Below are positions 56,583 to 58,941 of a stretch of DNA of 64,000 nt, piece after piece. The stretch lies in the NCBI RefSeq assembly GCF_058153355.1, contig NZ_CM177019.1. One strand, given 5' to 3'. The notes below the pieces were generated by a model, which was given only the letters and a program-made list of their open reading frames with translations, was not told the origin of the DNA and searched no databases. Both the position numbers and the translations under genes were made by a program. The number at the start of each line of letters is the position of its first letter. The stretch's first letter is position 1.

Positions 56583-58941
56583 GTCGGGTAGCAGCGATTC
56601 ATTACTGTCTCGCCGCCCCCTAAGAACGGTACGTGCGAGTTTCCCCGCATACCGCTCAAGCCTTTATAAGCCTCCACCTTGTGGGAGACCAGCGTCATTA
56701 CTATGTAGTTGTCGATGGCAGTTGGGATGGAGTAGGACTAAATTGCTCACATCATCGCTACCGCCAAGAGATTTCTTGAGCAAATGATGAACATTCCATC
56801 CTGTATCGCGATTAATCGGTTGCTCACATAAAGGGCAGCGCGATCCTTGCCTTTTCCATATAGCGAGAATCCTTTTCTGCCCCTGTTGGGATTTCTTCCA
56901 TGAGTAGTCCAGCCTTCTTTCGAAGTATGTTTCCCACTCGGGATCATATGGATTTGCCGTTCCCTTTATTTTTATATAGCGATTAATATGGATGTCGCTG
57001 GCCCGGGACAGAACATATTTCCTACCCTCCGGATCGACTCCATAAAATCGACCATGACACATTTTTATTGTCGTGTGGTACTTTCGGAAGATCCATCTCC
57101 GGCCTTTGCCGGGATGTCTCCTTCTGCACCACTGCCAGATTTTGCGCCAGATTTGGTTGTCGACATAGTTAAATGTCTCTGCCGATGCTACATGTTGGTG
57201 ATAGTTTGCCCACCCGGTGATGATTGGATTAAGCAGATTTATTAGCACCCATGCAGGAACCGTTCGGTTACCTTCAATAGTCTCTCTGATCTTGCTAAGA
57301 AATTGTTTAACGTTTTTCTTGGCTGGTCTGATTATGAGTTTTCTACCGAAGCGTCGGACGTGCTGCCCAAGGAAATCAAATCCGTCAGTAATGTGAGTGA
57401 TGACCGTTTTCTCTTCGGATAACGTCAGCCCTCTTTCTGCAAGAAATGATTTCACCAACGGAAGAACATTCTCCTCCAGAAGTTCTTTCGACTTTCCGGA
57501 AATGATGAAATCATCAGCATACCGGACGAAGTGAACCTGATGTTTCCTGAATGTTTTTGAGCGTTTCGGACCAAAGCGATTTTGCAGCAGTCTTTCCAGT
57601 CCATCCAGGGCCATGTTTGCCAGAACTGGAGATATGATTCCTCCCTGGGGTGTACCCGAGAGAGTTTTGCTGAATATGCTTTTTTCGATGATCCCGGCTT
57701 TCAACCAATTACGGAGTATTTGCTTGTCCATAGGAATATTTTCAAGCAGCCACTCGTGGCTAATGTGTTCAAAGCATCCTTTAATATCGCCTTCCAGAAC
57801 CCATTTCGAGGCGTTCCGGGAACTATACATATTACATACCTGTTGAATGGCGTCAGCCGTACATCGCGCTGGTCTGAAACCATAACTGTTGTGATCTGCA
57901 TTAGTTTCCGATACAGGCTCCAATCCCAGCAGATGCAGGGCCTGCATTGCCCTGTCAAGCATGACGGGGATTCCTAATGGTCTTTTCTTGCCATTAGATT
58001 TGGGTATAAAAACTCTTTTTAGCGGTAGGGGCTTGTACCCTTTTCGCCTGAGTTTGAATATCGCTTCCCATTTTGATTCTGGAGTACTCCAGATTTGACC
58101 ATCAACTCCGGGGGTTTTACGCCCGCTATTTTCCGTAACTCGTTTCACCGCCAGTGCTCTGGCGCTGAATGAGCGAACCAGCAATCGTTGCAATCTACCG
58201 ACTGTACGCCATTGCTGGTTACATGCCGCCTTTGCGATTCTTGTCTGTATGGTTTTAACGTGTTGATGGCATTTCTTCCAGTTAATGGAATGCCAACCTT
58301 TTCCGTTGATGACCGCAGTTACATTGTTAGATGTAATTTTCATACATGTCATCCAAAGAAACCTTCGCAGATGTTTCGCAATTAAAGACCAGATGGAAGT
58401 CAGCACGGTTTCCCGTTAAGGCAAATATTGAACCTCTATCCGCACGATTACAGTCCGGCTTTCGCTTTTTCCATCCTCCTTTACCCGCATTCTCATCAGT
58501 TTGCCTTACGGTGCCCCTGCCACTAGGGCGAGAATTCGGGCTTACCAAGTTCCGACCAACATACAAAGAACGGGTTAGGTTCTGTCTATCCGCCGGGGGA
58601 GTTATTGTCCATGTATTCCCACTACGAACAGGAATAGCCTTACCCCTTACCTTTTGGTGCAAGCCTATCAGCATCTTTGGCTCGTTCTCTGTTACGACGT
58701 TTAACGACAGTTCACTATGTTAACCATACCGCCCAGCCTAGCGCTCTCGCCGCATGATGCTTGTAGCGATCAGGTTTTCTCACGATTAACTGAAGCAATA
58801 TTTGCTAAGCTACATTGTCCCAAGGGCTTCAGACAGAGCCGTTACCAGCTTTGCCTGCCTCAGTAGGCTACAACTAATGGAATAGTTGGTTTTATATAAA
58901 TAATTTATCAAAACAATATGTTGGACGACTTCTTGTCGCAC
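56583..58941 (-). mobile_element. group II intron (~2.36 kb) with intron-encoded RT-maturase-HNH protein
   Basis: The minus strand begins GUGCGACAAG at 58941 (5' consensus GUGYG). A domain V-like helix GAGCGGUAUGCGGGGAAACUCGCACGUACCGUUC lies at about 56624-56657, followed by a domain VI-like hairpin ending ...CCCGAC. The IEP ORF sits between (domain IV). Confidence 0.8.
56664..58406 (-). CDS. group II intron-encoded protein (reverse transcriptase / maturase / HNH endonuclease)
   Basis: RT motifs including YADD (VRYADDFIISG), a maturase region, and a C-terminal HNH/zinc-finger region (CPLCEQ...HHLLKKSLGG...HPNCHRQLH). The true start is probably an internal Met (MTCMKITSNN or MKITSNN). Confidence 0.85.
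   Translation of the reverse strand: MLTSIWSLIAKHLRRFLWMTCMKITSNNVTAVINGKGWHSINWKKCHQHVKTIQTRIAKAACNQQWRTVGRLQRLLVRSFSARALAVKRVTENSGRKTPGVDGQIWSTPESKWEAIFKLRRKGYKPLPLKRVFIPKSNGKKRPLGIPVMLDRAMQALHLLGLEPVSETNADHNSYGFRPARCTADAIQQVCNMYSSRNASKWVLEGDIKGCFEHISHEWLLENIPMDKQILRNWLKAGIIEKSIFSKTLSGTPQGGIISPVLANMALDGLERLLQNRFGPKRSKTFRKHQVHFVRYADDFIISGKSKELLEENVLPLVKSFLAERGLTLSEEKTVITHITDGFDFLGQHVRRFGRKLIIRPAKKNVKQFLSKIRETIEGNRTVPAWVLINLLNPIITGWANYHQHVASAETFNYVDNQIWRKIWQWCRRRHPGKGRRWIFRKYHTTIKMCHGRFYGVDPEGRKYVLSRASDIHINRYIKIKGTANPYDPEWETYFERRLDYSWKKSQQGQKRILAIWKRQGSRCPLCEQPINRDTGWNVHHLLKKSLGGSDDVSNLVLLHPNCHRQLHSNDAGLPQGGGL

Follow-up and report, generated by a model that had tools for sequence, protein, structure and literature searches.

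A IIB1/CL1-like group II intron of plasmid Hok-family toxin genes at a REP end of an Escherichia coli chromosome: probable ectopic insertion by target mimicry

Overview

The window analyzed here, a 64,000-nt stretch of contig NZ_CM177019.1 (RefSeq assembly GCF_058153355.1), carries a complete group II intron of 2,359 nt at positions 56583 to 58941 on the minus strand. The intron lies between the convergent genes ybhJ and ybhC, named from the RefSeq annotation of the orthologous region, and is flanked by repetitive extragenic palindrome (REP) units of a bacterial interspersed mosaic element (BIME). It very probably (a probability of roughly 0.85) belongs to a mobile IIB1/CL1-type lineage of IncF plasmid Hok-family genes, with the window copy representing an ectopic insertion at a chromosomal site that mimics the plasmid target. 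All intron positions are given in window coordinates, and the sense strand of the intron is the minus strand.

Intron boundaries and insertion locus

At the 5′ junction (58942/58941) the minus strand reads ...TATCTTATCTGACCTACGA/GUGCGACAAGAAGUCG..., or in short form ...CCTACGA/GUGCGACAAG, the slash marking the junction, and at the 3′ junction (56583/56582) it reads ...AUCGCUGCUACCCGAC/AUCGCAUCGAACUGUAGG..., or ...GCUGCUACCCGAC/AUCGCAUC. The first 16 nt of the intron are GTGCGACAAGAAGTCG, its 3′ end at the exon junction is GCTGCTACCCGAC, and the termini GUGCG and GAC agree with the group II consensus (5′ GUGYG, 3′ AY). E. coli strains EC42405, whose ybhC is 99.8% identical to that of the window, and 2013C-4282 are empty at this locus and read ...ATCTTATCTGACCTACGA-ATCGCATCGAACTG... 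(...ATCTTATCTGACCTACGAATCGCATCGAACTG...), exactly the window flanks joined with no gain or loss; because the empty sites equal the joined flanks, with no target duplication, the intron boundaries are proved.

The 5′ exon is a REP unit, GTCGGATGCGATGCTGACGTATCTTATCTGACCTAC (58944 to 58979, minus strand), with the intron inserted 2 nt past its CTAC end, and the naRNA4/REP model RF02564 matches this side at 58947 to 59017 with 71.9 bits. The 3′ exon (56535 to 56582, minus strand) consists of the spacer ATCGCATCGAACT, whose first base is the +1 A at 56582, and then of the adjoining REP unit, GTAGGCCGGATAAGGCGTTTACGCCGCATCCGGCA, where a partial RF02564 match covers 56524 to 56566. Strain K-12 (BW25113) has no intron between ybhC and ybhJ, and its allele carries C at −10 and A at −2. 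The 120-nt empty site is matched at 99% identity or more in only 23 of 5,426 complete RefSeq E. coli genomes which, together with the K-12 differences, indicates that the target allele is lineage-specific.

Intron anatomy

The ribozyme is represented by two high-scoring covariance-model matches. Rfam model RF02012 (group-II-D1D4-7) matches a domain I segment at 58742 to 58889 (minus strand) over the full length of the model, with 112.5 bits against a gathering score of 34 (E-value 7e-23), and RF00029, covering domains V and VI, matches 56583 to 56659 with 65.5 bits against a gathering score of 40. Domain V, GAGCGGUAUGCGGGGAAACUCGCACGUACCGUUC, with its AGC triad and GAAA loop, occupies 56624 to 56657 (minus strand) in the RF00029 alignment and is matched by the separate domain V model RF04356. 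Domain VI (56583 to 56621, minus strand) has in the same alignment an unpaired UA 7 to 8 nt from the 3′ end, and the RF00029 structure line suggests A56589, 7 nt from the 3′ splice site, as the putative branch point. A consensus fold of eight copies, approximate only, closes domain I at intron nt 7 to 10 with 400 to 404 and contains domain II and III helices.

The intron-encoded protein is specified by an intact open reading frame (ORF) of 559 codons (56664 to 58343, minus strand) with RVT_N, reverse transcriptase (with the YADD motif), maturase/X and HNH regions, for which the Pfam E-values are 8e-32 (RVT_N), 2e-40 (RVT_1), 3e-23 (GIIM) and 8e-10 (HNH). Identical proteins are present in Logan and NCBI draft assemblies. 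Exact look-ups of the 559-aa and a 562-aa form pointed to assemblies other than that of the window, and a 580-aa form with a GTG start had no record. By GC skew the intron sense strand is the leading strand in the window; no conclusion is drawn from this orientation because the protein has an endonuclease. The 16-nt 5′ end was found exactly in at least 120 loci (L016 to L095 among them; L-numbers denote loci) from Bacteroidota, Bacillota, Myxococcota, Planctomycetota and other phyla, and is a class-wide consensus as opposed to a marker for the lineage of this intron.

The original prediction, made from the letters of the window, had described a minus-strand intron with these two ends, an ORF with reverse transcriptase (YADD), maturase and HNH regions, a domain V-like helix at about 56624 to 56657, and a location in the linker between REP units of a BIME, at a locus not known to hold an intron in K-12. 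Sequence, Rfam matches and empty sites agree with its boundaries to the base, the open frame with its four Pfam domains, the exact domain V match, the RF02564 matches on both flanks and the empty BW25113 locus bear out the other statements, and the covariance-model check that it proposed gave scores above gathering for domain I and for domains V and VI. It had also called the element potentially active, and with the ORF and all scored ribozyme parts intact the intron does appear complete and functional.

Home site in plasmid Hok-family toxin genes

Only two of the 5,426 complete genomes carry the intron (97.2% identity), both on plasmids and in hok; none carries it on the chromosome. PLSDB holds 20 full-length copies with 77 to 99.6% identity, mostly on IncF plasmids, from Escherichia coli, E. 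albertii, Salmonella, Citrobacter and Enterobacter. Flanks were read for nine of these copies. In eight the insertion point within a Hok-family gene is identical, following the codons ...A-Y-E and three codons short of the stop, and most of the remaining copies overlap an annotated Hok-family gene or DUF5431 (mok). Metagenome contigs and draft assemblies repeat this pattern, giving a total of about 30 related copies at one position near the 3′ end of Hok-family genes, in four genera of named isolates and in metagenomes. When the exons are joined they restore either a 52-aa Hok of the plasmid R1 type or a 49-aa Hok-family ORF, which has a Pfam HOK_GEF match and a weak NCBIfam match and which we take to be srnB-like, after SrnB of the F plasmid. 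The home site of the lineage is thus the 3′ end of plasmid Hok-family toxin genes, and the REP site is a secondary look-alike. No match to the 28-nt intron 5′ end was found among GTDB species representatives. No relevant paper on group II introns within hok/srnB or REP/BIME sequences came up in literature searches, the supplements of PMC3522654 mention no hok site, and no paper was found in a search for E.c.I8.

Several observations accompany these plasmid copies. The unspliced Hok ORF has been annotated as a Hok toxin with an intron-encoded tail (...AYE-CDKKSSNILF) in L001 (2888 to 3034), L162 (775 to 945) and L003 (approximately 2365 to 2500), and in plasmid CP057208, as in L143, the srnB-like ORF is also broken by an in-frame stop after ...VLCFH. 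A different intron, with a 60% identical protein, occurs very frequently on IncF plasmids of E. coli and Klebsiella (L139 2495 to 4162, pCTXM15_000200; L001 1 to 197) and adjoins hok on the opposite strand as opposed to lying inside it. Plasmid pCRST030_1 has a second ltrA upstream of ssb, and IncF leading regions seem to collect CL1-type introns.

Guide sequences of the intron

Exon-binding sites (EBS) in the intron and intron-binding sites (IBS) in the exons were mapped by aligning ten copies first and then further copies from draft assemblies. At hok sites the 5′ exon reads ...UUCAUGGCUUACGA/, with IBS2 UCAUG opposite EBS2 CAUGA and IBS1 UUACGA opposite EBS1 UCGUAA, while at srnB-like sites it reads ...AACUCUGGCCUACGA/, with IBS2 CUCUG opposite EBS2 CAGAG and IBS1 CUACGA opposite EBS1 UCGUAG. 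These compensatory changes between the two kinds of site identify the EBS1 and EBS2 positions. A Salmonella copy (L008) has EBS2 CAUAA opposite IBS2 UUAUG, and in another copy (L009) the stem of the EBS1 hairpin shows a compensatory A-U to G-C change. The lineage therefore has two target-adapted variants, hok and srnB-like, and the window copy is srnB-like.

In the window copy EBS1, 5′-UCGUAG (intron nt 315 to 320; 58622 to 58627, minus strand), lies in the loop of the hairpin UAUUCC/GGAAUA and covaries with IBS1 position −6. EBS2, 5′-CAGAG (intron nt 251 to 255; 58687 to 58691, minus strand), covaries with IBS2 and is placed relative to the ID(iv) helix as the IIB1 rule describes (PMC8643678). 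The putative EBS2a is the A at 58693 (minus strand), assigned by its position before EBS2.

Mimicry of the home site at the REP end

The 5′-exon target in the window consists of IBS1 CTACGA (58942 to 58947), IBS2 ATCTG (58950 to 58954) and a T at −14 (58955), all on the minus strand. Set against the intron's own guides, this site, TTATCTGACCTACGA/A, pairs at all six IBS1 positions and at four of five positions of IBS2 (AUCUG), has the +1 A, and carries a T−14 complementary to the EBS2a A; the EBS-IBS pairing with the flanks, which the original prediction had named as a test, is thus present. From −12 to −1, 11 of 12 bases are the same as in the srnB site, AACTCTGGCCTACGA/A.

The BIME supplies an empty internal control. 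A neighboring repeat 92 nt away from the occupied site, ATCCGACCTACGA/ATC (59031 to 59046, minus strand), is an unoccupied paralogous site that differs only in having C for T at −10, so that an A.C mismatch falls at the center of the helix between EBS2 and IBS2. T at −10 is found in one of the eight REP ends of the window, and the other seven are empty. Across all genomes read, every occupied REP end reads TTATCTGRCCTACGA/A, the empty form of the target motif being TTATCTGRCCTACGAA, and no intron is present at REP ends that have C at −10 or that combine G at −1 with a base other than A at +1.

The window copy differs from the srnB-site copy of plasmid CP057208 at 10 of 2,359 positions, with one amino-acid change and no change in an EBS, and a second srnB-site copy, in GCA_043012465.1, found by exact-protein look-up, is identical throughout the 2,333 nt available for comparison. 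There is thus a plasmid donor that cannot be told apart from the window copy.

Based on these data, the insertion would have proceeded as follows. A plasmid-borne copy probably supplied a ribonucleoprotein of spliced lariat and intron-encoded protein, which would have reverse-spliced at the IBS1/+1 junction into the REP end and the first bases of the spacer, where these mimic the srnB junction; cleavage of the opposite strand by the HNH domain and target-primed reverse transcription would then have completed the insertion. The ribonucleoprotein route, the endonuclease cleavage and the reverse transcription step are presumed from established group II intron biology, the enzymology being that of IIB1 introns (PMC8643678; introduction of bioRxiv 10.1101/2024.12.23.630110). 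The mechanism is an ordinary one, and nothing mechanistically new is implied.

Recurrence at REP ends in other strains

Exact-protein look-ups identified further copies in draft assemblies, sampling only a few loci, and several of these copies are chromosomal. In the leuV-rsmC BIME the junction reads ...GCCAGATGCGACGCGGGCGCGTCTTATCTGGCCTACGA/AGGGCTAAC... (TTATCTGGCCTACGA/AGGGC; L140 and L164), the corresponding site being empty in strain KE55, and in the REP downstream of ybaL, facing gsk, the srnB-like variant is inserted at ...GCCAGATGCGGCGTGAACGCCTTATCTGGCCTACGA/ACCGACG... (TTATCTGGCCTACGA/ACCGA; L144 and L145). One further copy (L163) occupies a non-REP site near a DUF533 gene, AAACTGATCTACGA/, with six of six IBS1 and three of five IBS2 positions paired. 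Ectopic copies of the hok variant (L010 and L157) lie outside REPs, at sites that follow the EBS sequences of these copies.

Three haplotypes can be distinguished by twelve variable positions in the intron. Haplotype A comprises the window copy, a srnB-site copy (L162), L140 and L141; haplotype B the srnB plasmids and the gsk copy L144; and haplotype C L163 together with the rsmC copy L164 and the gsk copy L145. Haplotypes A and C occupy the rsmC site in different strains, and B and C the gsk site, indicating independent insertions. Near-identical copies stand at six or more distinct sites, with differing haplotypes at shared sites, and at least five of six chromosomal events are REP events, every one of them at TTATCTGRCCTACGA/A. 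K-12 MG1655 has the gsk target with 100% conservation, and 5,149 of the 5,426 complete genomes match it at 99% identity or more. For the rsmC target there are 3,338 genomes with 90% identity or more and only 348 with 99% or more.

The search for further copies and their flanks that the original prediction had proposed accordingly returned about 30 copies in Hok-family genes and others at chromosomal REP ends. Its suggestion of recent acquisition agrees with the empty sites in close relatives and with the plasmid-site copy identical over 2,333 nt. Its description of an element using a repetitive-element target holds in part, since the same variant occurs at two other REP ends with the same 16-nt motif; the primary target, however, is the Hok-family genes.

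Draft contigs at intron copies show irregularities. In L147 (GCA_042204225.1, ABUXTC010000036.1) the intron at 912 to 3270 has a srnB-like plasmid 5′ flank and a gsk-side chromosomal 3′ flank, which reflects either an assembler's fusion of two copies or genuine recombination between plasmid and chromosome across the intron; in both cases this genome holds both a plasmid copy and a REP copy. The L141 contig consists of the intron alone, and the L163 and L164 contigs end at intron nt 2150 (SRR34880567, GCA_015118455.1, GCA_015121405.1), which suggests several copies per genome in those samples.

Weighing the explanations

Several points weigh against an ectopic insertion of a plasmid intron by mimicry. 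The expression, splicing and mobility of the window copy are presumed from group II intron biology, and a donor plasmid in the window strain is a possibility. G−18 and G−17, common to the home sites, are missing at the REP site, where the protein contacts for efficient homing are therefore probably missing too; loss at distal positions is expected of an ectopic, as opposed to a homing, target. EBS3 was not located, +1 being A at every site read so that there is no covariation to follow. The assignment of the intron as IIB1/CL1-like is drawn from similarity scores. A final point concerns EBS2a. Mobility of EcI5, the intron of plasmid pO157, involves a near-strict Watson-Crick EBS2a-IBS2a pair at −14 (PMC8643678), and the home sites of the lineage depart from this rule, the pair being G.T (hok) or A.A (srnB-like); only at the three REP sites is it A-T, a pattern that mimicry leaves unexplained. 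It is possible that the rule is looser in this lineage, that EBS2a is misassigned, or that the variant fits REP ends better than srnB at this position.

An alternative is an intron specialized for REPs, which would recognize REP or BIME sequences as such, through the hairpin or the GTAG/CTAC tag, with the hok and srnB copies as a side-line, much as IIC introns use terminator hairpins or IS1397 and IS621 use REPs. Three distinct REP ends are occupied in at least five independent events, five of six chromosomal events in all; every REP site has a T−14, the complement of the putative EBS2a A, where an A stands at the srnB site; and IBS1 overlaps the conserved CTAC tag of the REP. Such a specialization is nonetheless improbable. 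Every occupied REP shares the rare 16-nt motif, and ends with C or A at −10, including the adjacent unit, are empty; IBS2 lies inside the REP stem, so that folding of the hairpin would conceal the target instead of presenting it; one chromosomal event (L163) is not at a REP end; and about 30 copies, from four genera of named isolates and from metagenomes, are in Hok-family genes. The possibility that all REPs with the T variant are targets was examined and rejected, as those at moeB-fsa and nrdA-nrdB end in CTACGG and are empty (one genome read each). Adaptation of the window copy to REPs was rejected as well, given that its differences from the CP057208 copy touch none of EBS1, EBS2 and EBS2a and that it is identical to another srnB-site copy; it shows no EBS change relative to srnB-site copies.

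Group IIC introns, which have no endonuclease domain and no EBS2, read the structure of terminator or attC hairpins. The window intron resembles them in being inserted just downstream of a palindromic intergenic stem-loop. It differs in having an HNH domain, an EBS2 that covaries with IBS2 and CL1 proteins as best matches, and REPs without an IBS match are not struck, which also argues against targeting of the REP hairpin.

An assembly artefact, in which a plasmid intron was spliced into the contig, or passive arrival of the ybhC-ybhJ segment by homologous recombination, is highly improbable. Drafts do break or become chimeric at the intron, as in the join in L147, the isolated intron in L141 and the shared end base of L163 and L164, and look-ups among the indexed assemblies did not trace the source of the window. 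Both junctions in the window are chromosomal, however, and rebuild the empty allele at the very base that pairing with EBS1 and EBS2 dictates, which a mis-join would not pick, and recombinational import only shifts the insertion event one step back.

Least probable of all is that the copy is an inert relic, inserted but untranscribed or unable to splice: a scan found no promoter-like site upstream of the intron 5′ end, the only match lying inside the intron, REP hairpins separate it from the ybhJ stop and one IBS2 pair is missing, but neither its ORF nor any scored ribozyme part is damaged, all are the same as in a plasmid-site copy, and its shared orientation with ybhJ, 170 nt past the stop, makes read-through possible.

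Intron class and related systems

Similarity points to a IIB1/CL1-like intron. The best solved protein relative is the Thermosynechococcus elongatus intron protein (PDB 6ME0/6MEC; 627 bits, E-value 2e-187, residues 15 to 551 including the HNH region), while LtrA (IIA) and IIC proteins score at most 138 bits against the window protein. The T. elongatus TeI4h/Th.e.I3-type introns are closely related to IIB1 introns (PMC8643678); they differ from the window intron, compared here at the protein level, in being cyanobacterial and thermophilic, in having proliferated within one genome, and in their unrelated targets.

EcI5 serves as a targetron. The original prediction had proposed a comparison with catalogued E. 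coli and Shigella introns, and the proteins of EcI5 and the window intron are 53% identical (tblastn). EcI5 is of subgroup IIB1 with a CL1 reverse transcriptase, and in IIB1 introns a 5-bp EBS2 follows a 3-nt segment that holds EBS2a, with IBS2a at −14 in a Watson-Crick pair (PMC8643678). The layout in the window fits this geometry, with the helix strand CGUCG, 3 nt (UAA) and then CAGAG, and with IBS2 at −13 to −9. The two introns share an E. coli host, IncF plasmids, the RVT_N-RT-X-HNH architecture, a 6-nt IBS1, a 5-nt IBS2 at −13 to −9 and the 3-nt segment before EBS2 with its EBS2a position (PMC8643678). Nucleotide similarity between them is undetectable, a megablast search of the 5,426 genomes with the window intron having missed pO157. 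The window lineage further differs in homing to the 3′ end of Hok-family toxin genes, in having two natural EBS-reprogrammed variants and in an EBS2a/−14 pair that is not Watson-Crick at the home sites.

Two other kinds of element offer parallels for the insertion site. Insertion sequences that target REPs and BIMEs include IS1397, IS621 and others (Tobes and Pareja 2006, PMC1525189). As with these, the window intron is inserted in or beside REP units of an intergenic BIME, a neutral and "safe" place; IS1397 and IS621, however, are DNA transposons that read REP features broadly, whereas the intron is a retroelement that strikes only REP ends able to pair with its EBS1 and EBS2. Mobile group II introns, Ll.LtrB among them, also retrotranspose ectopically to look-alikes of their homing sites, as reportedly described by Cousineau in 2000, Ichiyanagi in 2002 and Coros in 2005. 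The window insertion resembles those of Ll.LtrB, in which low-frequency chromosomal sites keep IBS1, +1 and part of IBS2 without the distal positions recognized by the protein and without target duplication. Ll.LtrB is a IIA/ML intron as opposed to IIB1/CL1, and the look-alike of the window intron is a repeated family, the REPs, with the same two to three loci struck repeatedly.

Other features of the window

A low-GC islet of about 4.7 kb (42207 to 46970; about 40% GC in the 40 to 48 kb bin) lies between a ybhK-like ORF (41238 to 42206) and uvrB (46971 to 48992). It holds five ORFs: one partially matches SopA-type HECT E3 effector families, another encodes a pentapeptide-repeat protein, and NCBIfam gives nothing for the remaining three. 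A PADLOC search returned no match for any of the five. Two ordinary E. coli features were also recognized, a Moco riboswitch (RF01055, 101.5 bits, 40889 to 41033, minus strand) upstream of the moa operon and a second BIME (naRNA4/CssrE, RF02564, 74.6 bits, 16885 to 16955, plus strand).

Implications

Group II introns are scarce on E. coli chromosomes, where most are found in other mobile DNA. In the case described here the sequence reveals the donor site, the RNA guides and the ectopic target together, making it a clean natural example of retrotransposition by target mimicry, and because the look-alike is one of the REPs, unrelated strains are struck repeatedly at the same two or three loci. 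The T/C control at −10 within one BIME and the question of the EBS2a/−14 pair provide a natural test set for IIB1 targeting rules. The chimeric contigs at intron copies and the Hok ORFs that run into the intron call for caution in assembly and annotation.

A more far-reaching reading, which we consider unlikely, is that the srnB-adapted variant is beginning to colonize the E. coli chromosome, with some of the REP ends serving as neutral landing sites. The near-universal conservation of the ybaL-gsk target in complete genomes bears on this reading. As the EBS2a A pairs with the T−14 of the REP and not with the srnB site, the variant could already be better tuned to REPs than to its nominal home, and with one or two changes in EBS2, hundreds of REP ends (ATCCG or ATCAG types) would become accessible to it. 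If this reading holds, the window would show a natural case of a IIB1 intron passing from a gene on a plasmid to a repeat family dispersed over the chromosome.

An intron family inside type I toxin genes that recurs at REP ends is undescribed as far as the literature could be searched. On its plasmids the intron splits the Hok mRNA between the coding region and the 3′ end, such that toxin expression may depend on splicing and plasmid addiction could hinge on it.

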